Position numbers and translations under genes: made by a program. 60,659 nucleotides of DNA, from NCBI GenBank assembly GCA_964511155.1, contig CAZEEJ010000005.1, positions 1 through 60,659 on the forward strand. Reading direction: 5' to 3'. The stretch comes from an uncultured Planctomycetales bacterium (GTDB taxonomy: Bacteria; Planctomycetota; Phycisphaerae; UBA1845; PWPN01). Below the pieces are notes generated by a model. The model searched no databases. It was not told the origin of the DNA and saw nothing but the letters and a program-made list of their open reading frames with translations. Shown here in pieces: positions 2,221 to 33,971 of this stretch. Each line of letters opens with the position of its first letter. Within the stretch, counting starts at the first letter, position 1.

Positions 2221-2319
2221 CCGGGAGGCGCGGCTCTACAGGGATACATGGCTCTGCTCAGCGGACCTGGAGCGACTGTGGAGCCCGGAAGTCACAACCT
2301 GTGTAGAAAGGGCAAGACA

Positions 2320-5447: not shown

Positions 5448-5478
5448 GGCCGACTTACAGCCCACCTGGCTGAGAGCT

Positions 5479-7178: not shown

Positions 7179-7209
7179 GGGTACTGCTCCCGCATGGCGT
7201 CGTCGGCGG

Positions 7210-8505: not shown

Positions 8506-8509
8506 CCTG

Positions 8510-9445: not shown

Positions 9446-9519
9446 CAGCGATGTTCCTCACGAAATGATCGCAACACACCGCGGACCACACGTATTGATT
9501 TCATTGTCATTGCCGCACG

Positions 9520-11144: not shown

Positions 11145-11328
11145 GAGCTATCCCACAGACTGGCGAATCTTTGTCCATCGTCCTCAATCATCCTCCACTT
11201 TCGGTCCAAGGCTGCGGCCGCACGCTGCAGGGCCTATCGGTCGGGGACCGCACCCGCAGAGGCCCGGTATGCAGCCTCGATATCGCGCATGTCCGTCTAT
11301 GTCGCTGCCGCGGAAGGGTTGCTCCAAT

Positions 11329-12549: not shown

Positions 12550-12636
12550 ACCGGAAAGTTCACCAACTGAAGGCGGCGCAGGTCACCAAAACAGAATTGC
12601 GGCGAATGCCCGGCCAGTCACTGGCTCCCGCCGATC

Positions 12637-12705
12637 CATCTGTGTCGATCTGTGTGATCTGTGGGCCTTTCTTCCGCCCACAGATCACGCAGATGGACAC
12701 AGATG
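12637..12705. repeat. Family F imperfect inverted repeat (CATCTGTGTCGATCTGTGTGATCTGTGGGC ... GCCCACAGATCACGCAGATGGACACAGATG) inside the operon
   Basis: Read directly. The core GCCCACAGATCAC(T/G)CAGAT recurs at 30500-30528 and 57076-57097. Confidence 0.8.
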
Positions 12706-12733
12706 AAGTCAGCAAGACAACAAGCCGGAGCGG

Positions 12734-16965: not shown

Positions 16966-17506
16966 GATTCGCGTCTGTGCGATAATGAATAACTCGGGCG
17001 GGTACACCAGCGGCAACGGCGTAATCCGGCACATCGCGGGTCACCACTGCTCCCGCGCCGATGACCACACCCTTTCCAACCCGGACCCCCGGCAGAATGA
17101 TCACCCGTGTGCCGATCCATACATCATCTTCGATCACCACGGGTTTGGCATCCTCCCAGCCCTGCTGGCACATGGGGATGTCCAACCGATCATGGCGGTG
17201 CAGACGGGTGATAATGATGCACTCCGGGCCCATCATGACGTCGCGCCCGATCGTGATCGGGCCGCGCAGATCGCAGTCCACGCCGATGCCCGAGTTATCG
17301 CCGATCTCGATCCTGGCCCCGTCGCCAAAGTGGGCGCCGCGTTCGACGTTGATATTGCGGCCGACACGCCGAAAGATGTAACCGCAGATCACCCGGCGGA
17401 TTGGGCGCGTCCACTTCCCCGCCCGCGTATTCGAGGCGGGCAGGAAACGCGCAAAACCGTAATAGGCGCTGAGTGCCGCGATTCGAATGATGGTTCTGAA
17501 ACTCAC
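16958..17506 (-). CDS. Left-handed beta-helix acetyltransferase (WcaF-like)
   Basis: [15 protein letters not shown]..., [37 protein letters not shown]. Confidence 0.85.
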
Positions 17507-17509
17507 GCC

Positions 17510-18658
17510 TCAGGCTCTCCTGCCGCCACCGGTACTCGTCCTGCCCATCCGCGGCAACGCATACACTTCCTCATACAATGTTTCCATCTTGTCGACGAGC
17601 GCGGGCCACGAATACGCACCCTGCACGCTGAGCTTCCCCGCCCGCCCCATCGCCGCCCGCCGATCCGGATCGTCCAACAGCTCCTCCACCACGCGCGCCA
17701 ACGCCGCGGCATCGTTCCTGGGCACCAGGACGGCCGAGTCGGCAATCCCTTCAATCTCCTGCACTGCCGGGAAATCCGTGCACACGACGGGCAGCGCACT
17801 GGCCATGGCCTCAAGGACGACGTTCGGGAAGCCCTCGCGATCGGAGGTCAGGCAAAACACATCCGCCCCGGCCATCCAGCGAAAGACATCCGGCTGCATC
17901 TGAACGAGCCGCACGTTCTCCTCCGCATGCTCCTCCCGGATCACGGCCCGCAATTCGGCCTCCAACACGAAGCGTCCCAGCCCCACGAAGGTCACGTTGG
18001 ACCGCTTTCGGGTGAGCGCCGCCCCCGCCCGGATGAACATGGGGTAGTTCTTTTCCACCGCGTGTCGCCCCACCATCAGCACGATCTGCTGGCTCTCCGG
18101 AAGCCCCAGTTCGGTCCGGATATCAACACGTGCCGACGCCTGGTCCCGCTCGGGAACGCTCACCGCGTTATAAATAATGCGCACGTCGTCGACGGGGACA
18201 CCGGCCCACTGCTCCATGGACTGTGCGATCGCCCTGCTGTTGGCCAGATGGATCGTTCGACCGGCCAGCAGCCGCTCATACACCCGCACGGGCCACGGCA
18301 CGTCGCACATGACGCTCCGGGTGCTGGCCAACAGCCGCCGGACCCCGCAACTCATGGCCAGGATGCGGCCCCAGAACCTGGCCGAGTACAGCCACGTATG
18401 CACGATATCCGGTCGAAACTCCCGGATTACGCCGCGTAACCAGAGCGCGAATCGCCACAGCGGATTGGAGAACTTATTGAGGTAGAATACCGGTATGCCC
18501 GCCGCGAGCAACTCGTCATCCTGGACGTCTGGCGCCGGCGAGTAGTAGACCACCGCCTGCTCGAACCGGGCACGATCCATCCGCGGCAGAAGTTGCACGA
18601 GCTGCCGCTCCGCCCCGCCCCGGCTCAACTGTGGAATGACGTGAAGAATGCGCATCAT
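17510..18658 (-). CDS. Glycosyltransferase, GT4
   Basis: Starts MMRILHVIPQLSRGGAERQLVQL (ATGA overlap with the upstream stop at 18655-18658). EX7E region FCLTSDREGFPNVVLEAMASALPVV. The listed ORF's extra 112 aa overlap the ligase gene. Confidence 0.85.
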   Translation of the reverse strand: MMRILHVIPQLSRGGAERQLVQLLPRMDRARFEQAVVYYSPAPDVQDDELLAAGIPVFYLNKFSNPLWRFALWLRGVIREFRPDIVHTWLYSARFWGRILAMSCGVRRLLASTRSVMCDVPWPVRVYERLLAGRTIHLANSRAIAQSMEQWAGVPVDDVRIIYNAVSVPERDQASARVDIRTELGLPESQQIVLMVGRHAVEKNYPMFIRAGAALTRKRSNVTFVGLGRFVLEAELRAVIREEHAEENVRLVQMQPDVFRWMAGADVFCLTSDREGFPNVVLEAMASALPVVCTDFPAVQEIEGIADSAVLVPRNDAAALARVVEELLDDPDRRAAMGRAGKLSVQGAYSWPALVDKMETLYEEVYALPRMGRTSTGGGRRA

Positions 18659-19956
18659 GAAGATCCAGCGTACGTGCCGGTACTCGACCTGGCGTATGTC
18701 CGTTCCAGCCACAGCGTATAGCCAAGCTGTGCGGCCAACGCGGCCCAGACCAGTTTGTGCTTGTGCATCTCTCCACAGAACACCCAAAGGCCCAGCGACA
18801 TATAGAGCAGCCATCCGCACTGCATCAACTGCTTGCCGTGCAGAGGCATGTCCATCCGGTCCAGTTTGATCATCCTCACGACAGGCAGACTCCAGGCGCT
18901 GAAGAGCAGACCCCAACCAATCAGGCCCGTCTCGGAAGCGATCGCCAGGATGGAATTGTGAGGACTGCGGCCGCCAAACTCGTATGACAGGCAAGCGTAT
19001 CCCACGCCCATAATCGGATTGTCCTGGAGGGCAGCCAGACTGTCCTTCAAGAACCTGATGCGCGCATCGGCACTGCCTTCCTTACCCGTACCCTGCAAAA
19101 CCTCAGCCAGCGCGATCATGCGATCCCAGTATGTCGTCGTCGTCAAGTAAACGAACAGCCCCACCAGCCCCAGCGCGATGATGACCGGCCACATCAACTT
19201 CATGCTCACGGATGCCGCCGATTTTCTGAACACAAACCAGTACATCCCGCCGCACATGATCATGAGCGTCAACATCGCCATCCGGGAGCCGGTATTCGCC
19301 GCCAACCCAACGAGCGCAATACACGCGCACACCATCATGAACTTGACACTCCTGCGCCGGGTGCTCACGGCGATGGACAAGGCCCCCCACAGCGCCAGGC
19401 ATAAGAACATGCCATATTCGTTAGCACTTCCCATCGTTGCGGCGGCACGCCCGCTCGCCCCCGTTGTGCTGTACCCCACCATCCCCAACACCGTAGTCGT
19501 TGCCGCCGCGGCGATGAGCGCCCCCAGATACCACCGATACGCAGAGAACCCATTTATGCTGTTCAGTACTATGAAGAACATCCCCAGGAGTTTTGCGAGG
19601 GTAATCGCGCCTTCCCGAGCCGCCTCGCCGAACGCCGCGAACGGCACGCCTGCAAGCACCCACATGAGAAACATGGCATACAGAACACACTCCCGGCTGA
19701 ACACCAGCGGCGTGCCCTTCATGGCGGCTCCCAGGACCACCATCGCCCCCAGGTAGGCCACCACGATCTGCGAAGTGAGCGACACCCAGGATCCGGTATC
19801 CCCGACCCGCCACGTGCTCATTAACCCGATGCTGAACACCAGGATTCCCAGCAACGGACCGTTGATTCCCGCTCGCGCTTCCTTCGCCCACGCATTCCCG
19901 TCCACCGGGTCGAGATAAAGCGTTTCGTACACCTGAGCCGAACCGTATTGTCTCAT
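18655..19956 (-). CDS. O-antigen ligase/polymerase-like polytopic membrane protein
   Basis: About 10 or more hydrophobic helices. Family-typical motifs GSANEYGMFLCLALWG and SPHNSILAIASETGLIGW. Confidence 0.8.
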   Translation of the reverse strand: MRQYGSAQVYETLYLDPVDGNAWAKEARAGINGPLLGILVFSIGLMSTWRVGDTGSWVSLTSQIVVAYLGAMVVLGAAMKGTPLVFSRECVLYAMFLMWVLAGVPFAAFGEAAREGAITLAKLLGMFFIVLNSINGFSAYRWYLGALIAAAATTTVLGMVGYSTTGASGRAAATMGSANEYGMFLCLALWGALSIAVSTRRRSVKFMMVCACIALVGLAANTGSRMAMLTLMIMCGGMYWFVFRKSAASVSMKLMWPVIIALGLVGLFVYLTTTTYWDRMIALAEVLQGTGKEGSADARIRFLKDSLAALQDNPIMGVGYACLSYEFGGRSPHNSILAIASETGLIGWGLLFSAWSLPVVRMIKLDRMDMPLHGKQLMQCGWLLYMSLGLWVFCGEMHKHKLVWAALAAQLGYTLWLERTYARSSTGTYAGSS

Positions 19957-19960
19957 CTCG

Positions 19961-21331
19961 TCACCTGCAAACCGCGGTTTCGTCCAGAATCTCTGCCAAC
20001 TGCCGCGTGCAGGCCTCGCGGGTAAACTGCCCCGCCGCCTGCGCCAGCTTGTCCCGATACATGGCGTAGTTCGCCAACAACTCCCGCAAACCCGCGATCA
20101 CGCGTTCGCCGCTCGAGGGATCAACCGCCACGCCCACCTGATGATGACGGATGAAGTCGGTCAACGCGCCCGGCGGCGTCAGCGCCAGGATGGGTCGCCC
20201 GGCTCCGACATACTCAAACAGCTTGCCGGGCAGGGCGTATCCGTGTTCCTGTGAACCGACTAACAGCAGAACATCCATCTCCAGCATCAGCGCCAAGGCC
20301 TGGCGGTACGGGACGGGACCGCCATTGTCCAGGATGTCCACCGCGTCAGCACGAGCGGCCAGAGCCGCGATGGCCTGGTGCGACGGACCGCGCATCACCA
20401 CATGCAGGGGCCGCTCGCAAAACTCATCGGAGATCGCCTTGGCCCCGCGCAACAGCTCCAGCATGTACTCCTCGCGTCCCTGGTACACGGCCCCGAAGTA
20501 GCCCACCCGAAGAGCCTTTCCACGGGATGGATCACTCGACACCGTCTCGCCCGCGAAGTCCGTCGGATCATATCCATTATAGATCACCGACAGTTTGTCG
20601 GTATACTCGGGATGCTCCCGCCGCAACGTATCCGCCATCAGCGGCGTGACTACGACGATTCGACTGGCGGTCTCAAGCACGAACCGTTCCCAACGCCGGT
20701 CAAGCCAGTGATGGCACCGCGTCGGCCACAGCTTCACATCGCCCAACCGCCACGGATCTCGCAAATCCACCACCAACGGCCGCCCCGTCAGTCGGCTGAG
20801 CACCGCTCCCACACACAGTCCCACGGTTGGAGGAGAGGTTGCCCAGATGACATCGCTTCGCCGAGCCGGTCGGAGCCCCTGCAGGATGCCCGTCGGGAGC
20901 CAGCTTGCCGACTCCGGCACCTCGATCCAGTCGGTCAACTGCGCTCGCCGGGGTCCGCTCTGCAGCGTTCTCCCTTGCGCGGTGCCCGTCGCCCGAGTTC
21001 GTCGCCAGGCATCGAGCCAACGCCGCAACCGGCGCGGTTCGAGATAACCGCCGCGAATCACCTCCATCCCCACGGGAATCTCCGCGCATAACGCGCGGTC
21101 CACGAACAGGCTGAGATCTGGATAGAACTCCTCCTTGATGGTCAGAACGGTCGGTTCCCAGCCGAATCGCCGCAGGTACTTGGCGAACTTGCCGGCCCGA
21201 TGCGAGCCCACCGCCGCACAAGGGTAGTAGCCCCGGGTCACAAGCAGCACTCTACCCCGCGGCGGCCGCCCGGGGCCGATGCCGAATTCAGCCGGTTGAT
21301 CGCTGGGTTGAAGCACGCCGTGCTCTGTCAT
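19961..21331 (-). CDS. Glycosyltransferase (GT-B fold, GT4-like)
   Basis: RVLLVTRGYYPCAAVGSHRAGKFAKYLRRFGWEPTVLT, C-terminal LPGKLFEYVGAGRPILAL. Confidence 0.7.
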   Translation of the reverse strand: MTEHGVLQPSDQPAEFGIGPGRPPRGRVLLVTRGYYPCAAVGSHRAGKFAKYLRRFGWEPTVLTIKEEFYPDLSLFVDRALCAEIPVGMEVIRGGYLEPRRLRRWLDAWRRTRATGTAQGRTLQSGPRRAQLTDWIEVPESASWLPTGILQGLRPARRSDVIWATSPPTVGLCVGAVLSRLTGRPLVVDLRDPWRLGDVKLWPTRCHHWLDRRWERFVLETASRIVVVTPLMADTLRREHPEYTDKLSVIYNGYDPTDFAGETVSSDPSRGKALRVGYFGAVYQGREEYMLELLRGAKAISDEFCERPLHVVMRGPSHQAIAALAARADAVDILDNGGPVPYRQALALMLEMDVLLLVGSQEHGYALPGKLFEYVGAGRPILALTPPGALTDFIRHHQVGVAVDPSSGERVIAGLRELLANYAMYRDKLAQAAGQFTREACTRQLAEILDETAVCR

Positions 21332-22428
21332 TCGCGGTGCCCGGCCTCAGGCTCGAAGCCGGCGCCCACTTCCGGCGCCGAAGAGGCGGGCTCGCCGCGC
21401 CGCTCCGCAAGGGTCTTCAGCAGGTCATCGAGAATGGCGTCCTGGGGCCAACACTGCCCCTCGTGCCAATTCAGTTCCCGGTCCCAGTGCCCGGCACAAT
21501 CGTAAACGAACTGTGCTACGAACGCATAACTGATCTCGACGATTCCCGGCTCGCCCGATGGATAGGTCACGAAATCGAACGCAATACTCTGCCCTTTGAT
21601 CTGCTCCGCGACGGCAAAGGCCTGTCTCACGCACTCCAGCTTGATACGTTGCCGGTCGTAGCCGAGATACCCGCCGCCGGAAGCCCTGAAATCGCCGGGA
21701 CGCACGCCGCGCGTGTAGCCGAACGCACGATCACCGATCACGGTGATCCGCGTATCGAACGTGTTGTCCGGCACGAAATCCTGGAAAAGCACATAGCCCC
21801 GCTCACGCGGCATCAGGCGGTTGGCTCGCCAACTGGCATGTAACACCCGGGGCACGCGGCGAAGCACGCCCCACAGATCGCCCGCCCGACGGTGTCGCCG
21901 AAACTTCACCGAGCTGTCGCGCAGATACCCGGCAATCGGCTTGAAGCCCCTGCCGAAAGCCCGCCCAACCAGTTGTCGAGCCGCGGCCGCGTCGCGAACC
22001 AGCCGCACATTCTGCGAACCCGCACCACGACGCAACTTAAAGACCTTCGGGAAGGTCGTTCGCTCGATCCACGCGTAGGCCGCTTGCGGGTTGAAGAAGG
22101 TGTGCGTCGGGACCAGCGAGGCCCCTACCGACTCGAGCAGGTACTTCTGCGCCATCTTATCATCGAAATGCCAGAACGTCGGCGTACTCGGGTAAACCAG
22201 CAAGCCGGTGTGTTCCAGCGCCTGGATCAGTTGACGGGCCAGCAGCATGTCCTCGGGCAGATGGTGAGCGGGGTGCCACAGCAAGGCGTCGCACTCGGCC
22301 AACTGCTCCACAATATCGCTGCCAAAGCAGTCCACCTCGCAGCACCTGATCCCGCGCTCCCGACACACCTCCAACCACCGGTCCGTAAAACTACCCGGCC
22401 GCGGATGAATCGCCAGTTGAACACTCAT
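21328..22428 (-). CDS. ATP-grasp domain protein
   Basis: Starts MSVQLAIHPRPGSF (ATG 22428). DKMAQKYLLESVGASLVPT, FPKVFKLRRGAGSQNVRLV, LFQDFVPDNTFDTRITVIGDRAF, DFRASGGG. Its stop overlaps the downstream ATG (ATGA). Confidence 0.8.
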   Translation of the reverse strand: MSVQLAIHPRPGSFTDRWLEVCRERGIRCCEVDCFGSDIVEQLAECDALLWHPAHHLPEDMLLARQLIQALEHTGLLVYPSTPTFWHFDDKMAQKYLLESVGASLVPTHTFFNPQAAYAWIERTTFPKVFKLRRGAGSQNVRLVRDAAAARQLVGRAFGRGFKPIAGYLRDSSVKFRRHRRAGDLWGVLRRVPRVLHASWRANRLMPRERGYVLFQDFVPDNTFDTRITVIGDRAFGYTRGVRPGDFRASGGGYLGYDRQRIKLECVRQAFAVAEQIKGQSIAFDFVTYPSGEPGIVEISYAFVAQFVYDCAGHWDRELNWHEGQCWPQDAILDDLLKTLAERRGEPASSAPEVGAGFEPEAGHRE

Positions 22429-22563
22429 TTCGTTTTCTCCAAGCCGTTTGCATCGTGGTCTACACTTCTTCGCTGCGCTTCGCACCACGACCAGTTGCCT
22501 GTGCCTGACCTGACCACGGTCAAGCAGAGGCGGCTGACCAGGCAGTCGGCCGCGAGGCAATGA

Positions 22564-23520
22564 TCACTCCACGCCCACTCTGTCAGAGGACCAATGATGA
22601 CGTTCACGGGCCAGCCTCGACGCCAGGTAGCGAGAGAAGATGCGAGCACCGTCAGCGTTGAGGTGGTGTTGATCCGTGTAGCTGGCAGGGCTCAGGCCTT
22701 CGATCTCACGGCAGTCAATGCAGCCGACGCCGGTGCGTTCGATCGTGTCCAGCAAGTCCTGCGGCAGTTCATAGGGCTGAGCTCTGGGCATCAAAACCAG
22801 GATGGGTTTGACCCCATGCTGCTGCGCAAGGCTTGCGAATAGTCCCAGTCGGTGATGGCTGGTGTCATCCTGGCTACTGGGGCTCGCGACGTCCAGGGAA
22901 CGCCGCAGCAGGGTGTGTGACCAGGCCACCATCTCGATGTAATCCGGTACGATGCTCTGCAATATGATTTGTCGGCCCCGGGCCCGCTGGACACACGACG
23001 CGGACAGGGATGCGTGCAGATACTCTGCCCGCTGGCCGAAGTCAAAGTGGCCATCCCTCAGCACCTCCATCCTGGCACCGCAGTATGTCACCAGGCGGGC
23101 GATCCGGACATCCGGCACATCGCACAAACCGGGGGGCGTCGCGTTCACCAGAACGAGGTCTGGCAGCCTGCCCGGCTCGACGAAGAACATGCGAAACATC
23201 CACAACCACTCGCACATCTCGGCTCCGTTGAACGCCACGACCTCAAAAGCAAGATCGGTCCAGCCGCAACTGGCCGCCTGTCCTTTGAACGCGTCCTGAT
23301 CCAGGCCGCAGTTGGTCAAGGAGTTGCCCAGAATGAGCATTCTGGTCTGGTCCATCTTGCACAGTGTAGAAGCCTGCTGAGGAAGACTGGCGAGGGCTCG
23401 CAGCTCACTTGAGAACCGCTGCCCCTGCAAGCGGATACCCAGGTCCGCCGACAGCATGACCGCCAGCACGGTCAGAATGACCTTGAATTCGCGCTTAGAA
23501 CTGGAAGTAAATGAACGCAT
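22564..23520 (-). CDS. SGNH/GDSL-like putative acyl-transfer partner of the MBOAT (AlgJ/AlgX/DltD-like), N-terminal anchor
   Basis: Anchor FKVILTVLAVMLSADL. Block I-like MLILGNSLT. Block V-like DQHHLNADGARIF near the C-terminus. Overlaps the MBOAT gene by 26 nt. Confidence 0.55.
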   Translation of the reverse strand: MRSFTSSSKREFKVILTVLAVMLSADLGIRLQGQRFSSELRALASLPQQASTLCKMDQTRMLILGNSLTNCGLDQDAFKGQAASCGWTDLAFEVVAFNGAEMCEWLWMFRMFFVEPGRLPDLVLVNATPPGLCDVPDVRIARLVTYCGARMEVLRDGHFDFGQRAEYLHASLSASCVQRARGRQIILQSIVPDYIEMVAWSHTLLRRSLDVASPSSQDDTSHHRLGLFASLAQQHGVKPILVLMPRAQPYELPQDLLDTIERTGVGCIDCREIEGLSPASYTDQHHLNADGARIFSRYLASRLARERHHWSSDRVGVE

Positions 23521-24913
23521 GACTGACCTCTGGAGGGAAGCAGCACAGCATCATGACCATGTAGCTGTAGACGGCGGCTCGGATCGGCCAGGCCGCTTTG
23601 AGCAAGGCGGTCATGTCGTTTCGGCGATGGGTCCAGAACTCCAGCAGCATCAGCGGAGCAACGAAGAAAAGGATCAGCACTCCGGCATAGCAGGTAAATG
23701 GACTGGGATGCAGGTTGGTTGCCATGTTGCGCAGGATGTCCCACACCTGGCCCATACCCTGGGCTCGAAACAGCAGCCAGCCCAGGCAGGTCAAATGAAA
23801 CATGACCACCACCCCGACGATGTTCCGCAGCGTTTGGCCGCGAGGTTGGCTGGTGGCCCGGCTGGACGAACCGAAGAAGCGATAGATCGCCAGAATGCCG
23901 CCATGAAAACCACCCCAAGTGATGAACGTCCAGCTCGCTCCGTGCCACAGGCCGCCCAGCAGCATGGTGATCATCAGGTTGCGGTAGGTGTTGACCGAGC
24001 CGTGGCGATTGCCGCCCAGCGGGATGTAGAGGTAATCCCGTAGCCAACTGGAAAGGCTGATGTGCCAGCGATTCCAGAAATCGCTGGGCGATACCGCGAA
24101 ATACGGCATCCGGAAGTTGTACATCAGGTCGAAACCCATCCACTTGGCGATGCCCTGGGCCATCGAGGAATAGCCCGAAAAGTCACCATAGATCTGGAAG
24201 GCAAACGCGTACACCCCCATCAGGTAGTCGAACCCGCCCAATTCTCCCTGTTCAGCGGCAAACACCGCATTGACCAGGCCGGCCATGTTGTCGGCAATCA
24301 CCACTTTCTTGAACAGGCCCAGCAACACGTGATAAAGGCCTTCGGCGAAGTCCCCCTCTCTCAGGACGCGCGGCGAAGTGATCTGGCCCATCAGGTGATT
24401 GTATCTTTCGATCGGTCCGGCCACGAGTTGAGGGAAGAAAGCCACGAACAGGCTGAAGTCCAGCAGGCTGCTGGCCGGGCGGGCCTTGCCGAAGTACACA
24501 TCGATCGTATAGCTCATGGTCTGGAAGGTGTAGAAGGAGATCCCGACCGGCAGCAATACGTTCAACGTGGGCAGGGACGCGTTGAATCCAATCAGGCTGA
24601 GCAGATCGCACAACTCCGAGATGAAGAAGTCGTAGTACTTGAAGGTGCCCAGCAGGCCAAGGTTGCAGACCATCGATACCAGCAGCAGGGCCTTGCGCCG
24701 CGGGCGACTGACGCTGGTGGCGATGGCGTTGGAGACGAAGAAATCCACCACGGCCGAGATCGCCAGCAGCGAAAGGAACCGCCAATCCCACCAGCCGTAA
24801 AACACGAAACTCGCCAGCAGTAGCAGCCGATTCTGCCGATCGTGGCGCAATCTCCAATACAGGACGATGACAATGAGATAAAAGAGCCAGAATACGTAAC
24901 TATTGAACAACAT
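23495..24913 (-). CDS. MBOAT-family membrane O-acyltransferase (AlgI/DltB-like)
   Basis: MLFNSYVFWLFYLIVIVLYW..., FWNRWHISLSSWLRDYLYIPLGGNR, LLGGLWHGASW (invariant His). Confidence 0.9.
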   Translation of the reverse strand: MLFNSYVFWLFYLIVIVLYWRLRHDRQNRLLLLASFVFYGWWDWRFLSLLAISAVVDFFVSNAIATSVSRPRRKALLLVSMVCNLGLLGTFKYYDFFISELCDLLSLIGFNASLPTLNVLLPVGISFYTFQTMSYTIDVYFGKARPASSLLDFSLFVAFFPQLVAGPIERYNHLMGQITSPRVLREGDFAEGLYHVLLGLFKKVVIADNMAGLVNAVFAAEQGELGGFDYLMGVYAFAFQIYGDFSGYSSMAQGIAKWMGFDLMYNFRMPYFAVSPSDFWNRWHISLSSWLRDYLYIPLGGNRHGSVNTYRNLMITMLLGGLWHGASWTFITWGGFHGGILAIYRFFGSSSRATSQPRGQTLRNIVGVVVMFHLTCLGWLLFRAQGMGQVWDILRNMATNLHPSPFTCYAGVLILFFVAPLMLLEFWTHRRNDMTALLKAAWPIRAAVYSYMVMMLCCFPPEVSHAFIYFQF

Positions 24914-25049
24914 CAGGCTTTCCGCCCACCTGCCCCAAAGCTCATCCGGTGTCGCCGCATGGGTGTTAACCGAAACCTGAAGCCGATCATCCAGGAGGCG
25001 CGCTTATCGAGAGCACGTCAACTGTGAAGGCCTCATCCCGCACAATCCC

Positions 25050-26030
25050 TTAGAGCCCCAAATCGCCATACAGCCGGGCCAGAGCAGTAGCCTCGCTCGC
25101 CAGCGAGAACCGCTCCCGCACCATCGCCGCGCCGGCCACGTTCGGCGTTCCAGCCTGCCCGATGGATTCGAGCGCCGCTTGCGCCCCCGTGACATCCTCC
25201 GCGAAATGGCAATGGTCCAGCCGCCGGTTGTAAATCACGTACCGCCCTCGGGCCAACATCTCCAGTACCATGGCCGACAGGCTGTCATGCTCCGGCAGGC
25301 GGATCAGCACGGTGGATTCGCGGTAGATCGCCTCCACGTCTCGGCGGAATCCCAGGAACTCCACGTTCGCCGGCGCCTCCACCCCCGCCCCACTGGCCCC
25401 CAGGATGCGAAACTCCACCTTCGGCAGCCGCCGGGCGAGCTCCAGAACCGTGTCGCCCCCGTAAAAACTAAACCGTTGATCGCTCCAGTAACTCAGCGCC
25501 GCAAACCGCTCGGGCAGCGGTAGCACGTCCGCCTCGATCTGCGCGGGCAGCAAACGCACCACCTTGGCCGTGATGCCCAGCTCGGCAAGCTCGGCCGCCA
25601 GATCAGGCGAATCCGCCAGATGGGCCGACGCCCACCGGCTTGCCGCCCTGCGATTGACCCATGTCGCCCAGCGCCCTCGCGATGTGTCACGGAAACTCAG
25701 CAGATCGCTTCCAATCCAGTGCCAGACCACGGGCCGACCCAGCAAGCGAAGCAGCAACGCCGTCCGCCAACGGCAGGGACCGCCCACGTGATGGATCGCC
25801 CGCAATCGCCGCCACGAGCCCCACAACAGCCAACGTACTGACGCCAGCCGACTCTGCGGCCGAACCAGCTCCCCCTTCATCCCCGCTCGCCTGAACAGTT
25901 CCGCAGCCACCCCCATCCAGTACGGCGCCCCCATGATCCCGACCCGCGGCTCCGCCCCGCCCGTGACCTCCGCCGCCCCCGTCCGTTCCACCTCTGCGGT
26001 GCCCGTGTGCTCCCGGTCATCCACCGGCAT
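25050..26030 (-). CDS. Glycosyltransferase-like protein (GT-B, family 1/4-like); start uncertain (26030 or ATG at 25934)
   Basis: LIRLPEHDSLSAMVLEMLARGRYVIYN resembles the EX7E region. The first 32 aa are low-complexity. Confidence 0.55.
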   Translation of the reverse strand: MPVDDREHTGTAEVERTGAAEVTGGAEPRVGIMGAPYWMGVAAELFRRAGMKGELVRPQSRLASVRWLLWGSWRRLRAIHHVGGPCRWRTALLLRLLGRPVVWHWIGSDLLSFRDTSRGRWATWVNRRAASRWASAHLADSPDLAAELAELGITAKVVRLLPAQIEADVLPLPERFAALSYWSDQRFSFYGGDTVLELARRLPKVEFRILGASGAGVEAPANVEFLGFRRDVEAIYRESTVLIRLPEHDSLSAMVLEMLARGRYVIYNRRLDHCHFAEDVTGAQAALESIGQAGTPNVAGAAMVRERFSLASEATALARLYGDLGL

Positions 26031-29000
26031 TCACTCCCGAGCCTGAAAGGCTCGTTCCGCCAGCCCACGTCTTTGAGCCTGAAGGGCTCGTTCCGTCAGC
26101 CCAGGTCTTCGAGCCTGAAGGGCTCGTTCTATCAGCCCAGGCCGAAGGCCTGGGAACGGGATGACGCCTCGCGAGCCGGCCCTGAAGGGGCCGTTCATGC
26201 TGCTGCGACTGAGCCGATGCCCCCGGGATGCGAGGTGCTCCGGTGGGGTGATTGCCAGCTACCGTCTGCCAGTCATAGGAGTCTTGCGATTCGATCGGCC
26301 AGCGAAGGCTCAGCCGACCGCGCTCCCCCGCCCACTCGGCCCCCGCGGCATCCGCACTGACACGACCCGTCTCCGTCCCGCCGGAAGCATCCAGCAGGGT
26401 CACGAGGACGGCATTCCGCCCCGTCACCGCGAAGTAACCCACCGGCCCCGCCAGCCCCGTCTCAGGACGCCCCACCTGACCATCGCACACCACCGTGCTC
26501 TCGATCCGCAGCAACGTCTCGGCCGGCTCATCACCCGACACGGCCACCAGGGCACCATCCGCGATCCCCGCGTTCAACCCCTCGGCCACGCGGAACTGCT
26601 GCCGATAAACATGAGGTTCCTGCGACGCCAACTCATCGACCACCAGCAGCGTCCGCACCCCCGGGCCAAAGAACAAGCTTCGCCGGTGCACCACCCCGGC
26701 GTACAACTGCGATTCCCCCTGAAAGGCCACGAACGCCGGCATACCCGCCTCCTGCGTTCCTGCCGGGCGGACATCCAGCCAACGTGCCTTGCAGTCACCC
26801 TGCCGGTGTGAAGCACCATCAACCGAAACAGTCGTTTGCGACGGCGTGCCGATCAAGGCCTGCCGCTCCGCCGCATCCCTGTAGCTGGGATAGCCCGGCC
26901 CGGCCAGCAAGGCCCGGCCACCGGCGAACAGGGTCAGCGCCAGCGCGTCGTAATGGGAGTGCGCCACCGACCACTCACCACACCGCAGCGTCAGCATCAA
27001 GGCCGAGGACGTCGTCCACTCCGGCGCCGGCGCCCGGAGAACCAGGTACCCCGCCCCTGGCCATAAACGAACGCCCGGCTCGTTGGGTGGCACGGTCGAG
27101 GGCTTGACCGCCTCGCGCAGCGCCGCCAGCTCCGGCAGCGCGGGGAGGTGCTCATGCGGCCACCACGTCAGGTCCACCACCTCCGATTCCGTGTCCGCGA
27201 TCAACGGCAGCGATCGGTCCGGATGCAGGATCTCCCGGCAAAAAACCAGCATCTTCCGCACCGTCTCGGCGAACTGCGGACTCACCTCCACGTCCGCCTG
27301 CTCGCAGGTGGCCAGGAACCACAGGGCTGCTCTGGTCACGAAGTAGTGATAACTCGGCGTCACCTCGCGCGATACGCCCTCCGCCGTGACATTCGCCGCC
27401 GCGTGCTCCTGCATCCGCCGCACGGCCGTTTCGCGCCACCGCCCCCCACGGTCGAACTCCGGATACTGCAGCGCCATGCTCAGCAGCGCATAGTTCTGCA
27501 TCAGCCCATGGTTCGTCTTTGCGTTGTATTCGCGCCGATTGGTCAGGTGCCGCCCGTGCTGGATCAACGAGGTCAGAAAGGCTTTCTCGTCCTCGTCGGA
27601 CACTTGGCCGCCCGATCGCAGAACCTGCATCACCGCCATGTGCGCACAGATGCGATGGGACATGCAGTCATCGTTCCAGACATACTGATTGAAGTTCGGC
27701 CAGTCGCGGTTCCCGCGACGCCACTCCTCCATCATCGCCCGGGCCGCGGTGATGCCCTCCGAACCGCTGTTCAGCAACGGAAACAGCAACGCCTGCCGCT
27801 GCATGGCGAACAGCACCGGCACGGGCGTGGGGGCTTTCCACCGAAAACGTTCCTCCGGTCGCCACTGATACGACGGAGACTCAAAGAGCTCGCCCAATCG
27901 CCCGGCCAGGATCGCCTCAGCCATCCGCTCCGAGTCCGCGGGTGAGTCTCGCCACAGGATCGGCAGCGGCATCGGCGTGAAGGGGGTGCGCTCGCCCAAA
28001 TGGCGGATGATCGCGTTCATGGCCTCCCGCCGCCCGCCTGTTCGCCGCGCCTCCTCCATCCGCGCGCAGACCGGGTGCGTGCGGTCGATCATCGCCAGCA
28101 GATCCACGTGGTTGCGGTGGTAGTAAAACGCACCAAACCCGCTCCCCCCCACCGCCGCCACCACGCCCAGCATGGCCACAACGATGCGCCGGTACCACCA
28201 CAGTCCCGCTCCCGCCCGAACCCACGGTCCAGGCCGGTAGGTCACAATCACCACGCATGCCGACAACGTCGCCAGCAGACCCGACAGCCCGCTCAGCAAC
28301 GCAAAACCCCGCCGCCCGGCCAGATACCCATCGCCGTTCACCAGTGACGCCAGCACGATCGGACACGCCACCACCGCACCCGCTGCCAGCACGCACGCCA
28401 GGGCCATCAGCCGCCGACGCCAATGTCTGGGAACCGGCCCGACCCAGCCAGGCCCCATCATCCCGCCGCCCGCTGGCCCCACCGGCAGCAGGCGCGTTCG
28501 TCGCAATACCTGCCCCACCAGTTCCAGCCCGCCGCTCCAGACGCGACGCAGATCCTCCCACGCTGGAACCAACTCGCGAAACGATCGGCCCGACTCACGC
28601 AGATAAAACCGAGTCCACAGCCCCAGGGCCATGGTATAGGCGACACTGGCGGTGATCGCCGCACCCGCGATGCCCAGGATCGGGATCAACAACAGATTCA
28701 GACCGGCGCTCACCGCCAGCGTGGACCACGCGACGGTCACGTTGTAGTGGGTCTTCTGCCGCGTCAGCAGGTCGCTGGCCAGCACGGATGCCCCGCCCAG
28801 GGCCGCGATGCCCGGAAGCAGCAGCAGAAACGGCACGATCGAGCCCGTGAACTCCCAACCGAACAGCACCAGAATGGCCGGGATGCCGAACACGCCCGCC
28901 CCGACCATCGCCGCCAGGGAGGCGATCATCGTTGCCCGAAACACCGCCGGCACCTGCCCCTGACGACTCGCCATCTCGTTCGCCAGCCGCGGCAGAAACG

Positions 29001-29805
29001 CCGTCGAGATCGAGCCCGGCACCATGCGAAGATGCTCGGCCAAGCTCACGGCGAGCGTGTACAAGCCCAGGTCGGACCGCTCCACCAGATACCCCAGGAT
29101 GCCCTGATCCAGACGGTAGATGAGGAAACCCGCCAGCGTAGCCAGACAGATGGGCAACCCGAACCGCAGACTTCGACCCCACAACCACCGCGGCAGCGCG
29201 CTGGGACGCAGGCTGATCTCGTGCCGCAGAAACCAGATGGCCAGCACACTCGCCGGCAGATGCGCCAGGGCCATCACCCACACTGCCGCCAGAACCCCCC
29301 ATTCCAGCACCACCAGAAACACGAACAGCGCCGCCAGCAGGGTGGCCCCCGCCACGATGCGCAGGATGGACGCCAGAACCACCTGGCCCACCCCTCGCAC
29401 CAGTGAGAACATCAGCGTGCTGAAAATCGACATCGGCGCGATCATGCACGAGGCCAGGATGATCTCCGTGCTCAGCGTACCGAAATTGCCCCGGGGGATC
29501 GGCAGCCAGAAGAAATACGCACAGACCACCAGCACACTGACCAGCGTCCCGAACGCGGTGATCACCAGGGATTGCAGAAACAATCCCGCTCGAGCCTCCT
29601 TGTAAAGCCCCGCAAACGTGCTGTTGACGCTCTCCTGCCCCAGCATGGCGAACGTCGTCGTGATGGAGGGCAACAACAGCGCCAGCGCAAGGATGCCGCG
29701 TCCCTCCGGTCCCAGCCACCGCGACGTGACCGTCACGGTACCCAGCATGATCACCGCCAGCACCATGCTGCCGGCGAAAGTCGCGCTGATGTCCCGTTTC
29801 AGCAT
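26017..29805 (-). CDS. Fusion protein: Wzx-like polysaccharide flippase (about 400 aa), then 3 extra TM helices, then a heparinase II/III-like domain
   Basis: Starts MLKRDISATFAGSMVLAVIM (ATG 29805), with about 12 TM helices and typical flippase blocks (LGPEGRGILALA, GLYTLAVSLAEHL). There is no stop before the heparinase-like part (NHGLMQNYALLSMAL, HSHYDALALTLFAGGRALLAGPGYPSY). 1262 aa. Confidence 0.8.
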   Translation of the reverse strand: MLKRDISATFAGSMVLAVIMLGTVTVTSRWLGPEGRGILALALLLPSITTTFAMLGQESVNSTFAGLYKEARAGLFLQSLVITAFGTLVSVLVVCAYFFWLPIPRGNFGTLSTEIILASCMIAPMSIFSTLMFSLVRGVGQVVLASILRIVAGATLLAALFVFLVVLEWGVLAAVWVMALAHLPASVLAIWFLRHEISLRPSALPRWLWGRSLRFGLPICLATLAGFLIYRLDQGILGYLVERSDLGLYTLAVSLAEHLRMVPGSISTAFLPRLANEMASRQGQVPAVFRATMIASLAAMVGAGVFGIPAILVLFGWEFTGSIVPFLLLLPGIAALGGASVLASDLLTRQKTHYNVTVAWSTLAVSAGLNLLLIPILGIAGAAITASVAYTMALGLWTRFYLRESGRSFRELVPAWEDLRRVWSGGLELVGQVLRRTRLLPVGPAGGGMMGPGWVGPVPRHWRRRLMALACVLAAGAVVACPIVLASLVNGDGYLAGRRGFALLSGLSGLLATLSACVVIVTYRPGPWVRAGAGLWWYRRIVVAMLGVVAAVGGSGFGAFYYHRNHVDLLAMIDRTHPVCARMEEARRTGGRREAMNAIIRHLGERTPFTPMPLPILWRDSPADSERMAEAILAGRLGELFESPSYQWRPEERFRWKAPTPVPVLFAMQRQALLFPLLNSGSEGITAARAMMEEWRRGNRDWPNFNQYVWNDDCMSHRICAHMAVMQVLRSGGQVSDEDEKAFLTSLIQHGRHLTNRREYNAKTNHGLMQNYALLSMALQYPEFDRGGRWRETAVRRMQEHAAANVTAEGVSREVTPSYHYFVTRAALWFLATCEQADVEVSPQFAETVRKMLVFCREILHPDRSLPLIADTESEVVDLTWWPHEHLPALPELAALREAVKPSTVPPNEPGVRLWPGAGYLVLRAPAPEWTTSSALMLTLRCGEWSVAHSHYDALALTLFAGGRALLAGPGYPSYRDAAERQALIGTPSQTTVSVDGASHRQGDCKARWLDVRPAGTQEAGMPAFVAFQGESQLYAGVVHRRSLFFGPGVRTLLVVDELASQEPHVYRQQFRVAEGLNAGIADGALVAVSGDEPAETLLRIESTVVCDGQVGRPETGLAGPVGYFAVTGRNAVLVTLLDASGGTETGRVSADAAGAEWAGERGRLSLRWPIESQDSYDWQTVAGNHPTGAPRIPGASAQSQQHERPLQGRLARRHPVPRPSAWADRTSPSGSKTWADGTSPSGSKTWAGGTSLSGSGVNAGG
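26039..26154. repeat. Three tandem 36-bp units (GAGCCTGAARGGCTCGTTCC..CAGCCCA.GTCTT.), the last ending in the hairpin CCCAGGCC-GAA-GGCCTGGG (26136-26154)
   Basis: Units at 26039-26074, 26075-26110 and 26111-26146. They are in frame with the tail of the fusion ORF (WADRTSPSGSKT x3) and lie just upstream of the next gene's ATG. Confidence 0.85.
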
Positions 29806-30359
29806 GTGCCGCGGTCCTCGAACTGCATGGAGTAGACCATTTGCCTGAAAGCAGCCACATCCTGTGCGGTAATCTCCCGCGGGGATCGTCCCGGATAGGG
29901 CGCCTCGATCATGGTGAACCGGCTGCGGCGGTCCAGGTACTCCGCCAGACCGCATAGCACGCGCGCAGGGACACCCGCAGCCACGGATCGGTCCGGCACA
30001 TCCTTGGTGACCACGCTGCCCGCGCCGATGACTACCTGGCTCCCGATTCGCACCCCCGGCATGATGATGGCCCCATACCCGATGAACACCTCGTCACCAA
30101 TCCACACCGGAGCGACACGGTATTCCCCGGTATGCAGGTAGTAGCTCGCATCATGGCTGAGGATCATCGAACTCGGACCGATGACGCAGTTGCGCCCAAT
30201 GTGGATCAAACGCGGAAACATGCCGTCGAGGTTCTCGCGCATGAGCCGCGTACCCGCCCCGATATCCAGGTCCGCCATCCAGGCGAACGGATCCTCCTTC
30301 ACCAGCGATCGAGAAATCCGGCGAAGAATCCTTTTCAACACGGGGAGCCTCCTCGGCAC
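29799..30359 (-). CDS. Left-handed beta-helix acetyltransferase (maltose/galactoside O-acetyltransferase-like)
   Basis: VWIGDEVFIGYGAIIMPGVRIGSQVVIGAGSVVTKDVP. Confidence 0.85.
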   Translation of the reverse strand: MPRRLPVLKRILRRISRSLVKEDPFAWMADLDIGAGTRLMRENLDGMFPRLIHIGRNCVIGPSSMILSHDASYYLHTGEYRVAPVWIGDEVFIGYGAIIMPGVRIGSQVVIGAGSVVTKDVPDRSVAAGVPARVLCGLAEYLDRRSRFTMIEAPYPGRSPREITAQDVAAFRQMVYSMQFEDRGTC

Positions 30360-32581: not shown

Positions 32582-33193
32582 TCAGACCCGGTGGATTGGT
32601 CTTCGCCCGGTGATCCCGGCGTAGGCAGGAGGGTCGATCGGTTCCACGCTCTCGCTATCGACCTCGACCATCACGCTCTGGCCGAGCGTGGTGACGTTCA
32701 GATAGAGCCGCCAGCGATCCGCTGCCCGTGCGATCGTACCTTCCAGACCCTGCAGCGGGCCGGCGACAATACGCACCCAGTCCCCCACTTTCAGCCGTTT
32801 GGCCACCGAAAAATCGCACTGGCTGACCAGCAGCGTATGGACATGCAGCAGCTCCGCGTAAAACTGCTCCTGGTTGGCCACATTCAACACCTGAGCGATC
32901 CGATTCGTCCGCAGGGCTTGGTACCGCTGCTCCGGGTTGCCGTGAAAAAACACGTACCCGGGAAACACGGGTACCATGCTCCGCGAGACCCGTCGCGTCA
33001 CCGGACTGCGCGTCGTGCGCGGGCACAGCGGCAGGTAGTTGAAGACGCCCATCCGGCCGAGTTCCCAGGCCAAGGCCTTCTCGTTCCGCGAACGCGTATG
33101 CGCCACATACCACTGGCCCGCCAGGTCCGTAGGGATCGGGGCCAGTGATTCGACCCCCTGCTCACCCCACGCGATGTGATCCAGCTCGCTCAA
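32582..33193 (-). CDS. NusG-paralogue transcription antiterminator (RfaH/UpxY-like) at the head of the polysaccharide operon
   Basis: NGN-like WYVAHTRSRNEKALAWEL...VPVFPGYVFF. KOW motif VGDWVRIVAGPLQGLEGTI. Confidence 0.85.
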   Translation of the reverse strand: MSELDHIAWGEQGVESLAPIPTDLAGQWYVAHTRSRNEKALAWELGRMGVFNYLPLCPRTTRSPVTRRVSRSMVPVFPGYVFFHGNPEQRYQALRTNRIAQVLNVANQEQFYAELLHVHTLLVSQCDFSVAKRLKVGDWVRIVAGPLQGLEGTIARAADRWRLYLNVTTLGQSVMVEVDSESVEPIDPPAYAGITGRRPIHRV

Positions 33194-33371
33194 CGCCTCT
33201 TGCCTCGCTCAGCCCCGGCTCCGGACTACCCGCCGGGTCCAACGGCCGTATCAGTACTGCCCGGCGTGCCACGACCGTCACAGAACCGCTGCACCGGGCC
33301 GCCACCGCCCTGTGTATCTTACGCCAGCTATCGGCCAAAAGTCCTTGTGGCAACAGGCGATGTGAACATTC

Positions 33372-33740
33372 TCAGTTGAATCGGGGGCGTTTCGCCGACT
33401 CGCGGCGTTGCCAGGCCGCCAGCGCCAGCAACGCCAATCCCAGGCCCAGCACGTCGCACAGGAAGTCCCACACGCTGGGCTGTCGCCCCACGATCGCCTG
33501 CGTCAGCTCGTCGAAAGCCGCCCAAACGACCCCGCCCGCCAGGATCCAGCCCATCGCGGATGCCCCCACTCGCCGCCGCTCGGTCCCAGCCAACACCCAC
33601 CACCACAAGCACGCCCAGCCCGCGTAGAGCCCGAGGTGGACCACCTTGTCCAAATGAGGCACTCGCCAGCCCGCCGACGGCAGGAACCTGTCGATCTCCG
33701 GGAGATGGGTCAAGCCGAACATCGCGGCCCAGTAGACCAT
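33372..33740 (-). CDS. VanZ-family membrane protein (start uncertain; the ORF is open up to 33944)
   Basis: MVYWAAMFGLTHLP...LDKVVHLGLYAGWACLWWW...AAFDELTQ...DFLCDVLGLGLALL: 4 TM helices with the VanZ-typical DK..H and DE..Q blocks. Confidence 0.65.
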   Translation of the reverse strand: MVYWAAMFGLTHLPEIDRFLPSAGWRVPHLDKVVHLGLYAGWACLWWWVLAGTERRRVGASAMGWILAGGVVWAAFDELTQAIVGRQPSVWDFLCDVLGLGLALLALAAWQRRESAKRPRFN

Positions 33741-33931
33741 CAGCGACCCGTGCCGAAGCTTCCGCGAGGCGAGCCAGCCGCCCGAGCCCTGCTGATCCGT
33801 GGCTCGGCTCAAGCCGCGCCCCCCACCGGCCGCCGCCCCCGCATATTGCCTTGCTCCCTTGCTCACTCGCCTGCTCGTTGCCTCACGCGAGGACCGACCG
33901 AACTCCTTCGTTGTCCCAAACCGTACACGCA

Positions 33932-33971
33932 CCGCACTGTTCAAAGAGCAGTGGCTCTTTGAGCAGTGCGG
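33932..33971. repeat. Doubled family B palindrome (CCGCACTGTTCAAAGAGCAGTGGCTCTTTGAGCAGTGCGG)
   Basis: Matches 563-590 and 4422-4449. Confidence 0.8.

Follow-up and report, generated by a model that had tools for sequence, protein, structure and literature searches.

One reading frame spanning a Wzx-type flippase and a membrane-anchored heparinase III-fold enzyme in a planctomycete exopolysaccharide operon

The stretch of DNA analysed here, referred to as the window, comprises the 60,659 nucleotides (nt) of contig CAZEEJ010000005.1 from assembly GCA_964511155.1, an uncultured Planctomycetales bacterium. On its minus strand, a single long open reading frame (ORF) of 1262 codons holds a Wzx-type flippase followed by a membrane-anchored enzyme of the heparinase III fold. 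Judged by sequence, both halves fall within known superfamilies, the first among the Wzx/PST flippases and the second in the PL12-type lyase fold, and what appears to be new is the combination of domains. The explanation put forward, whose chances are judged to be about even, is that a one-base event brought two genes that are normally separate, in an exopolysaccharide operon of the Wzx/Wzy type, into a single frame. Nothing indicates selection for tethering of the enzyme to Wzx. The fusion is thus presented as a curiosity and not as a proven new machine, and its weight is limited because it is a single observation resting on one base.

By ORF scan, the minus-strand frame is free of stops from 26017 to 29955. 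Translation from ATG 29805 yields a predicted protein of 136.8 kDa, ending with the stop at 26017 (29805-26017). This ATG is the biological start, because the N-terminus that it gives (MLKRDIS...) is of the type shared by the six closest flippase homologues, all of which open with (M/V)LKR(D/E). The stop codon of the upstream acetyltransferase gene falls 7 nt inside the start of the long ORF. With a G+C content of about 65% in the window DNA, the third codon position is a good marker of frame. The G+C content at that position (GC3) stays between 0.72 and 0.92 from 29775 to about 26350, the junction at 28.1-28.6 kb included. A hidden frameshift at the junction was rejected, since the codon-position GC plot displays no change of frame at 28.1-28.6 kb. 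The claim made earlier from the letters alone (hereafter the sequence-only reading), that one uninterrupted 1262-residue ORF is present, is thereby borne out. Pfam, hydropathy, AlphaFold2 and Foldseek also agree with the architecture which that reading had proposed: a flippase, a basic linker, three transmembrane (TM) helices and a heparinase-type domain.

Residues 1-447 are predicted to form a complete 12-helix Wzx flippase. Pfam assigns Polysacc_synt (PF01943) to residues 3-275 (E 2e-16, 60.6 bits against a cut-off of 28.2), and Polysacc_synt_3 also passes its cut-off (28.7 bits against 23). This half aligns end to end with stand-alone flippases of 424-475 amino acids (aa) at 63-26% identity, and these homologues terminate at the equivalent of residues ~439-447. 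The nearest, a 446-aa protein annotated as a Phycisphaerae flippase, is 63% identical. A profile built from 32 flippase homologues matches WzxE (9g95) with an E-value of 3e-16 over positions 2-403 of 439. The AlphaFold2 model of the flippase half has a predicted local distance difference test score (pLDDT) of 93.0 and a predicted template modelling score (pTM) of 0.90, and it consists of twelve membrane helices and a C-terminal amphipathic helix. In Foldseek, WzxE occupies ranks 1 and 2 (9g9p/9g9n; TM-score 0.75/0.81, root-mean-square deviation 3.7). Features held in common with E. coli WzxE (PDB 9G95/9G9P) include the full-length 12-helix MOP fold, the Polysacc_synt domain and the arginine-rich cytoplasmic tail (PMC11706664), although identity in the structural alignment is only ~20%. 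Like other Wzx O-unit and lipid III flippases (PST family, MOP superfamily), this one is encoded in an operon with a Wzy-type polymerase and GT4 glycosyltransferases: a Wzy_C protein (18655-19956) and six GT4-type genes, besides the weakly GT4-like gene at 25050-26030, lie in the same strand block (7210-26030). Known Wzx proteins end at about 410-480 aa, whereas the window protein runs 815 residues further.

The remainder of the chain is dominated by the heparinase-type domain. Pfam identifies Hepar_II_III_N at residues 704-874 (E 1e-23, 84.6 bits against a cut-off of 22) and Hepar_II_III_C at residues 913-1087 (E 5e-21, 75.6 bits against 24). In the AlphaFold2 model of the enzyme half (pLDDT 91.2, pTM 0.87), three long helices precede an alpha/alpha toroid and a beta-sandwich. 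The top five Foldseek matches are all heparinase III structures (5jmf, 5jmd, 4fnv, 4mmi and 4mmh; E 3e-25 to 3e-23, target TM-score 0.63-0.75), and the PL15, PL17 and PL39 alginate lyases are listed after them. The profile of the enzyme family matches 5jmd and 4mmh as well (E 2e-41 and 4e-40, respectively). Heparinase III relies on Tyr294 and His424 for catalysis and on Asn240 as neutraliser (PMC12088678, Table 4). Among 31 family sequences, the aligned residues N765 and Y819 are invariant and H949 is nearly invariant, and the predicted Asn/Tyr/His catalytic triad is intact in the enzyme half. Where the sequence-only reading had described this half as heparinase-like, the enzyme domain is indeed present; the last ~80 codons (26259-26020) lie outside it.

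Compared with the heparinase III/heparin-sulfate lyase HepC of PL12 (PDB 4MMH, 5JMD, 4FNV), the window enzyme has the same pair of Pfam domains, the same toroid and beta-sandwich and the same triad, but structure-based identity is only 14-18%. The NCBIfam HepC equivalogs NF045573 and NF045572 score 50.4 and 26.8 bits against cut-offs of 700 and 600, and the enzyme half is best classed as a distant relative, not a HepC orthologue. In addition, HepC is soluble and secreted whereas the window enzyme is anchored by three TM helices, and HepC loci are catabolic whereas the window enzyme lies in a biosynthetic locus.

Closer counterparts are found among stand-alone proteins of 648-826 aa, to which the enzyme half (residues ~449-1182) is 38-46% identical over 81-93% of the module. 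These membrane-anchored PL12-like proteins (P0004-P0008 and P0010-P0065, one example being a 'heparinase II/III family protein' from a Planctomycetota metagenome-assembled genome) resemble it in their helices, in the end of the domain and in their catalytic residues. They differ in being separate genes with their own starts, none of them fused to or adjoining a related Wzx. The alignment of the homologues covers the TM region, and the first periplasmic loop is conserved. By hydropathy, the extra helices of the window protein lie at about residues 463-489, 500-523 and 538-560 (peaks of 2.55, 2.22 and 2.02). In the AlphaFold2 model, their limits are those given in Table 1, and block-mean pLDDT ranges from 56 to 92 with its minimum near the 524-527 loop. 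Because the stand-alone proteins begin about 10-17 residues ahead of the first TM helix, the three helices can be attributed to the enzyme family and not to the flippase or to a linker made by the fusion. Among 30 aligned enzyme relatives, 17 have three N-terminal hydrophobic segments, two have five and four have one, each of these numbers being odd. Both sequence and models thus present residues ~449-1182 as a complete member of an uncharacterised family of inner-membrane-anchored, PL12-fold proteins, usually with three N-terminal helices.

Some relatives of the enzyme half carry additional domains. P0018, which aligns from its residue 14 as the anchored family does, has cadherin/Big_9 domains at its C-terminus, and P0082 and P0105 are fused to a polysaccharide deacetylase. 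The domain is duplicated in tandem in P0075, P0076 and P0084 (1225-1272 aa), and P0096 is a protein of 1935 aa with a methyltransferase domain.

Between the two halves, the linker loop (residues 401-459) contains eight lysine or arginine residues in 59, and the helix that follows opens with RHWRRR. The linker is modelled with low confidence, with a mean pLDDT of 53 for residues 441-447 and values below 50 for residues 449-455. On the linker side of extra helix 1 there are at least 12 Arg/Lys residues. Two Arg lie in the loop that joins extra helices 1 and 2, both at the start of helix 2 at its periplasmic end, and four lie in the loop that joins extra helices 2 and 3 (524-540). The membrane part of WzxE comprises 12 helices, and WzxO157 has its arginine-rich C-terminus on the cytoplasmic surface (PMC11706664). 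Under the positive-inside rule, the extra helices would run in-to-out, out-to-in and in-to-out, leaving the catalytic domain in the periplasm; this orientation is also the one expected from the N-termini of the stand-alone relatives, which are short and basic. Hydropathy, models and charge therefore agree with the sequence-only reading that the catalytic domain would come to lie across the membrane from the C-terminus of Wzx because the number of extra helices is odd. Since a cytoplasmic C-terminus is joined to a cytoplasmic N-terminus, the fusion should be tolerated and should be topologically viable.

At the junction, the coding DNA reads ...CCA GCG GGC GGC GGG ATG ATG GGG CCT... (window sequence GCGGGCGGCGGGATGATG) and the spanning peptide is ...LLPVGPAGGGMMGPGWVGPVPR.... 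The in-frame ATG at 28461, which the sequence-only reading had singled out as a possible second start, is real. It is probably the old start of the enzyme gene, because the flippases end just upstream and the stand-alone enzymes begin about there. The match to the start of the stand-alone homologues also makes separate expression plausible, and the enzyme half may be produced from ATG 28461 in addition to the fusion. No Shine-Dalgarno motif of the GGAG type was found upstream of this ATG, which is uninformative because many genes of the window are without one.

Any one-base deletion within 28462-28521, the 60 nt ahead of this ATG, would bring Wzx to a stop at the TGA overlapping ATG 28461, giving a protein of 448 aa. 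If one G were deleted at 28469-28471, the tail would become 'PAAAG*', and that of the nearest homologue (446 aa) is 'PAAAEA*'. Because a single-base deletion restores two overlapping genes, the fused state hinges on one base in a G/C-rich run. In the closest relative, wzx and its neighbour have a comparable stop/start overlap, GTGA for the ATGA of the window. On the parsimonious view, wzx of the ancestor would have ended at the TGA and overlapped the start of the enzyme gene; one extra base in the G/C-rich tail of wzx would then have shifted it into the frame of the enzyme gene. It is the ATGA overlap, together with a weak similarity of the tails, that suggests such an insertion.

Several observations count against this origin. 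The fusion is represented by a single sequence on one contig, where a real mutation and an assembly error look alike. An ungapped DNA alignment of the wzx tail with the closest relative does not display a clean indel. Furthermore, the in-frame junction peptide (PAGGGMMGPGWVGP) resembles the linker (PPGEGMPGPRPVAGP) of P0002, a fusion of a related Wzx to a glycosyltransferase (GT), a resemblance that would fit an older in-frame fusion. This resemblance and that of the 'PAAA' tails both occur in low-complexity, GC-rich sequence.

The overlap is also the feature to be expected if the fusion were an artefact of sequencing or assembly. The true genome would then be one base shorter upstream of ATG 28461 and would carry a 448-aa wzx and a separate 814-aa enzyme gene. 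Such an explanation is unlikely but has to be taken seriously: the ATGA is in place, loss of any one of the 60 bases before it suffices to recover two canonical genes, and the closest relative has its own overlap of this kind. The restored Wzx would also be near its closest homologue in length, with a similar tail, and the fused protein is on one contig only while all homologues found are separate. Error is nevertheless the less likely option, because the other scanned ORFs are intact, so that the indel rate seems low, and a target of ~60 nt is required. No other broken gene was noticed; the scanned ORFs have complete Pfam domains, and two long ones, of 7.7 kb and 3.2 kb, contain no interruption. 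No homopolymer concerned exceeds four bases (GGGG), and the one directly ahead of the ATG has three. Moreover, the C-terminal Wzx fusion P0002 is reproduced on 8 contigs from four sources, and such fusions do occur in the clade.

Other origins of the enzyme module were also considered. For a mobile insertion or a mis-join, direct repeats flanking the module were sought, and only matches of chance size were found. Derivation of the enzyme by duplication of the second lyase-fold protein of the cluster was rejected, the likeness between the two being limited to the region of an HxH...GYP motif. That second protein (12734-15910, minus strand) has 1058 aa, Hepar_II_III_C only, an N-terminus resembling a signal peptide and a long C-terminal extension.

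Among 5.8 billion protein clusters (90% identity), the window protein stands by itself, in a cluster whose only sequence comes from one contig. Exhaustive HMMER comparison of residues 1-1200 with 1.84 billion representative proteins gave 15,781 matches at E<=1e-3. There is no second flippase-enzyme fusion among the best 150 of the 15,781, each of which covers only residues ~1-448 or only ~460-1194. A protein matched in both halves would combine their scores and would therefore head the list; distant fusions totalling less than ~124 bits would fall outside the best 150. A word-indexed search with the whole protein retrieved only the protein itself and two flippases, and a scan of JGI metagenomes with the junction peptide retrieved no relatives. 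With the family alignment, a scan of GTDB genomes returned one Planctomycetota locus, and this locus is without wzx. Long or two-stretch matches proved to be tandem heparinase domains or deacetylase, cadherin-like, methyltransferase or GT2-Wzx fusions. The other fusions of either half that were met are GT2-Wzx (P0003), Wzx-GT-like (P0002), heparinase-deacetylase, heparinase-cadherin and tandem heparinase. In the literature on heparinase-like proteins with Wzx or a flippase, no description of the combination was found, and only GnlB in Acinetobacter K loci is relevant. A paper on the archaeal epimerase Agl32, which mentions neither heparinase, lyase nor Pfam, offered no lead. The suggestion that the architecture had not been described before therefore stands, for the best 150 matches and the publications searched.

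The surroundings of the homologues point the same way. Within the fetched flanks, a related wzx is near the enzyme homologue in none of 10 loci, and an enzyme homologue is near the wzx homologue in none of 15. One enzyme relative, in an exosortase locus (L006/L007), adjoins EpsH/EpsI and a DUF3473 deacetylase. Another adjoins a sulfotransferase and a GT-like gene, a third adjoins ABC-2 transporter genes, and some stand-alone enzymes lie among GT4 genes. Apart from the relative in L008, whose neighbours are acyl-CoA dehydrogenases, every enzyme relative with readable neighbours lies among genes for glycan biosynthesis. On this evidence, the enzyme family looks to be associated with biosynthesis but not tied to Wzx.

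The locus of the best-covering stand-alone enzyme homologue (L005) has an arrangement of its own. The enzyme gene lies between one full GT-like gene, ahead of it, and a second GT-like copy, behind it, that is broken into two out-of-frame fragments; a sulfotransferase gene is nearby (coordinates 150-1097, 1234-3546, 3772-4327 and 5999-6985). This may point to reshuffling around the same genes and to sulfation of the polymer.

The sequence-only reading had gone further and seen in the fusion a physical coupling of translocation to modification of the polymer. For an evolved device of this kind there is no evidence: all homologues found are separate proteins, the wzx and enzyme families are not co-located in the 10 and 15 loci, and the fused state rests on one base upstream of the ATGA overlap. 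In the sequence data, all homologous loci keep the two genes apart, a pattern that the same reading had named as telling against it. A functional fusion maintained by selection, in which the enzyme acts on repeat units as they emerge from Wzx, is accordingly rated improbable. Both halves are intact and keep all residues that are invariant in their families, the topology is fully compatible, and the enzyme family is anchored to the membrane even when it stands alone, implying work at the membrane surface near lipid-linked intermediates. Wzx in this clade also tends toward coupling or fusion with its downstream neighbour. However, the best 150 matches include no second case, and the two families do not occur together in any other fetched locus. 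Enzyme homologues are instead found beside ABC-2 transporter genes and in an exosortase locus. The linker is short, poorly modelled and holds an old start codon, and the 3' end of the ORF runs into repeat DNA that is not shared, as would be the case for a recent, still unpolished event.

Should the 137-kDa product be made, the C-terminus of Wzx and the basic linker would remain in the cytoplasm. The three helices would lead the chain back out, and the catalytic domain would lie on the periplasmic face as in the stand-alone enzymes. There, the enzyme could act on a uronic acid of the growing chain or of the flipped repeat unit, still linked to undecaprenyl, by abstracting the proton at C5; the substrate is presumably the cell's own polysaccharide. 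The likeliest outcome would be cleavage by beta-elimination, leading to trimming, control of chain length or clearance of stalled polymer. If tethered to Wzx, the enzyme would be locally more concentrated where flipping takes place. A degrading enzyme within the operon of its own polymer has a precedent in AlgL, which is encoded in the alginate operon and probably clears stalled polymer. AlgL is likewise a periplasmic enzyme that performs beta-elimination at uronates; unlike the window enzyme, it has the PL5 fold, is soluble and belongs to a synthase-dependent pathway rather than a Wzx/Wzy pathway. Among the annotated genes of the window, no UDP-sugar dehydrogenase, as a source of uronic-acid precursor, was identified, which sits uneasily with this mechanism.

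A second outcome has to be weighed irrespective of the fusion. The enzyme half could be a polymer-level uronate C5-epimerase, converting for example GlcA to IdoA or ManA to GulA, a possibility that is doubtful but a serious alternative because the loci of the family are mostly biosynthetic rather than catabolic (one also encodes a sulfotransferase) and the fold is shared with dermatan-sulfate epimerase 1. This human enzyme (6hzn) is at rank 10 of the Foldseek matches to the enzyme model, with a significant E-value of 1e-14 and a TM-score of 0.51. It has the fold and active-site residues of bacterial lyases (PMC8006597). Its fold, too, comprises the two domains, and it works in biosynthesis, removing the C5 proton of uronates at polymer level (PMC8006597). 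The heparinase-like GnlB of Acinetobacter capsule loci may likewise have a biosynthetic role (10.64898/2026.07.20.739706). Sequence and fold do not separate a lyase from an epimerase, given that 6hzn matches the fold as well. True PL12 lyases are, however, much nearer to the enzyme half (E 1e-25 versus 1e-14, TM-score 0.75 versus 0.51), and dermatan-sulfate epimerase 1 is a eukaryotic Golgi enzyme. The triad is identical to that of heparinase III, and biosynthetic operons often carry a degrader of their own product, AlgL being one example. Beta-eliminative cleavage is favoured because true lyases provide both the closest structures and the matching triad, and C5-epimerisation appears less likely.

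Beyond the enzyme domain, the ORF continues into a tail that has no counterpart in any homologue. The enzyme homologues end at 'YDWQTV', the equivalent of residue ~1182, and GC3 over the tail is 0.60-0.65. Tandem Repeats Finder detects 36-nt repeats at about 26038-26146 on the minus strand (2.9 copies, 89% matches), just upstream of the start of the next gene at 26030. Each unit forms a GAGCC...GGCTC hairpin, a motif found nowhere else in the window, and the RNA fold of the repeat region has an energy of -66.2 kcal/mol (z -3.15). Therefore, the tail is probably former intergenic DNA that is read through to the stop, and the hairpin repeats may be a structured intergenic element engulfed by the ORF.

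Table 1. Features of the long ORF, its immediate neighbours and related genes. Window coordinates are given except for GT-like relatives, whose coordinates refer to their own loci.
Feature	Coordinates	Strand	Details
Wzx (PST/MOP) flippase module	28465..29805	(-)	residues 1-447; 12 TM helices and cytoplasmic C-terminal helix 416-438
Basic cytoplasmic tail and linker	28429..28605	(-)	residues 401-459; junction ...PVGPAGGG-MM-GPGWVGPVP
In-frame ATG-ATG (M449, M450)	28456..28461	(-)	overlapping TGA 28460-28458 in +1 frame, 'ATGA'
Three extra TM helices, N-terminal anchor of enzyme family	28111..28428	(-)	residues 460-489, 498-523, 528-565
PL12-like (heparinase III fold) catalytic domain	26260..28110	(-)	residues 566-1182; alpha/alpha toroid and beta-sandwich
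Predicted catalytic triad, enzyme half	N765 27513-27511; Y819 27351-27349; H949 26961-26959	(-)	aligned to HepIII N240/Y294/H424
80-residue C-terminal tail	26020..26259	(-)	common to no homologue; ORF stop at 26019-26017
Hexapeptide acetyltransferase gene, upstream	29799..30359	(-)	Pfam Hexapep; NCBIfam NeuD/PglB/VioB-type; stop overlaps wzx start by 7 nt
GT-B-like gene, downstream, 326 aa	25050..26030	(-)	ATG 14 nt ahead of long-ORF stop; GGGAG 4 nt upstream
GT-like relatives	L009-L011 11338-12288; L020 1919-2878; L021 1962-2864; L001 7958-8941		

The long ORF belongs to a same-strand block of about 4.5-34 kb that is typical of a Wzx/Wzy exopolysaccharide operon. A VanZ-like gene, a UpxY-type NusG antiterminator, an SDR epimerase and two hexapeptide acetyltransferases precede it, in that order. 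After it come a GT-B-like gene, a DltB-like MBOAT, a gene without an assigned family, an ATP-grasp gene, GT4 genes and a Wzy-type polymerase. The second lyase-fold protein and more GT4, deacetylase, methyltransferase and FemAB-like genes lie further on. The order of hexapeptide acetyltransferase and then wzx recurs in L009-L013 and L021.

The gene that directly follows the long ORF encodes a GT-like protein with weak GT4/GT1 Pfam matches, none above threshold in Pfam or NCBIfam. Its relatives are small proteins (300-330 aa) with strongly conserved HW[IV]G[ST]D, ADSP and EHDSLSAMVLE motifs, encoded immediately behind wzx of this clade in most of the related loci. The window copy shares 61% identity with its counterpart immediately following wzx in the Phycisphaerae loci L009-L011. 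Identity is 40-46% with the genes that follow wzx in L020 and L021, with a non-adjacent copy in L012 and with the second half of P0002, at its C-terminus. The window copy has kept its own start, MPVDD... compared with VTVDG... in the relative. L009-L011, whose Wzx is the 63% identical one, run VanZ, NusG-like, epimerase, hexapeptide acetyltransferase, wzx, GT-like, GT, Wzy, GT and GT. They contain no heparinase-like gene, and the wzx stop overlaps the GTG start of the GT-like gene (GTGA). In L020 and L021, a separate GT-like gene also comes directly after wzx. Because the two genes adjoin in the syntenic loci and in L020/L021 and are fused in the lineage of P0002, the wzx/GT-like pair can be considered conserved. 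In the window lineage, the enzyme gene is inserted between the members of this pair.

P0002 is a Wzx-GT-like fusion of 781 aa, read on contigs from NCBI, ENA, JGI and Logan, including that of the metagenome-assembled genome GCA_003170085.1. Its Wzx is of the same clade as that of the window (49% identity) and is joined to its partner at the corresponding position of the C-terminal tail, the linker likewise containing a Met. P0002 therefore shows that this Wzx tolerates C-terminal extensions. Unlike the window protein, its partner is a cytoplasmic GT-B-like protein with no extra TM helices, and the fusion arose by loss of a stop codon ('PPGEA*' in P0024 compared with 'PPGEGMPGP' in P0002). A partnership of flippase and glycosyltransferase in this Wzx clade is thus possible.

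A complex of Wzx, Wzy and Wzz has long been proposed on indirect evidence. The contacts of Wzx with the enzymes that act before and after it are poorly known, and natural fusions offer cheap hints to them. In the most far-reaching case, the 137-kDa fusion would be genuine, expressed and the reflection of a real partnership in which periplasmic polymer-processing enzymes dock on Wzx. Combined with the Wzx-GT fusion, it would amount to Rosetta-stone evidence for a flippase-centred complex, and the PL12-fold family could comprise biosynthetic C5-epimerases or chain-releasing lyases for glycosaminoglycan-like polymers. So far-reaching a reading is improbable. If the fusion did prove real and functional, it would be a ready-made construct for probing the effect of a flippase-tethered periplasmic enzyme on polymer length or chemistry. 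Apart from the fusion, the analysis defines a small uncharacterised family of inner-membrane-anchored, heparinase III-fold enzymes, the loci of which are mostly devoted to glycan biosynthesis.

Elsewhere in the operon, the region at 21328-24913 (minus strand) encodes a DltB-like MBOAT (472 aa), a 318-aa protein without an assigned family and a RimK-like ATP-grasp protein (410 aa), all absent from the syntenic Phycisphaerae loci. The block may serve to decorate the polysaccharide with aminoacyl or acyl groups. At the head of the operon (32582-33944, minus strand), a UpxY-family NusG-like antiterminator follows the VanZ-like gene, and the same pair is present in L009-L011 at about 6850-8100. Regulators of the UpxY type are best known from the capsule loci of Bacteroides. 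The distal part of the operon (4569-6537 and 8510-10533, both minus strand) contains a polysaccharide deacetylase with DUF3473, a FemAB-like GNAT protein and two more deacetylases. The deacetylase with DUF3473 is of a type also found in the exosortase locus L006/L007, and deacetylase, DUF3473 and FemAB-like accessory genes are of kinds met in PEP-CTERM/exosortase exopolysaccharide loci. No exosortase gene was found among the scanned ORFs of the window.

Outside the operon, a 2579-aa secreted-type protein with subtilase, BACON, Big_9 and dockerin domains is encoded at 39676-47415 on the minus strand. Two further proteins of 861 and 817 aa with Ig or BACON domains are encoded at 47619-50204 and 54561-57014 on the same strand. 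Giant secreted-type proteins seem typical of planctomycete genomes, and those of the window fit the Phycisphaerae affinity of the closest homologues.

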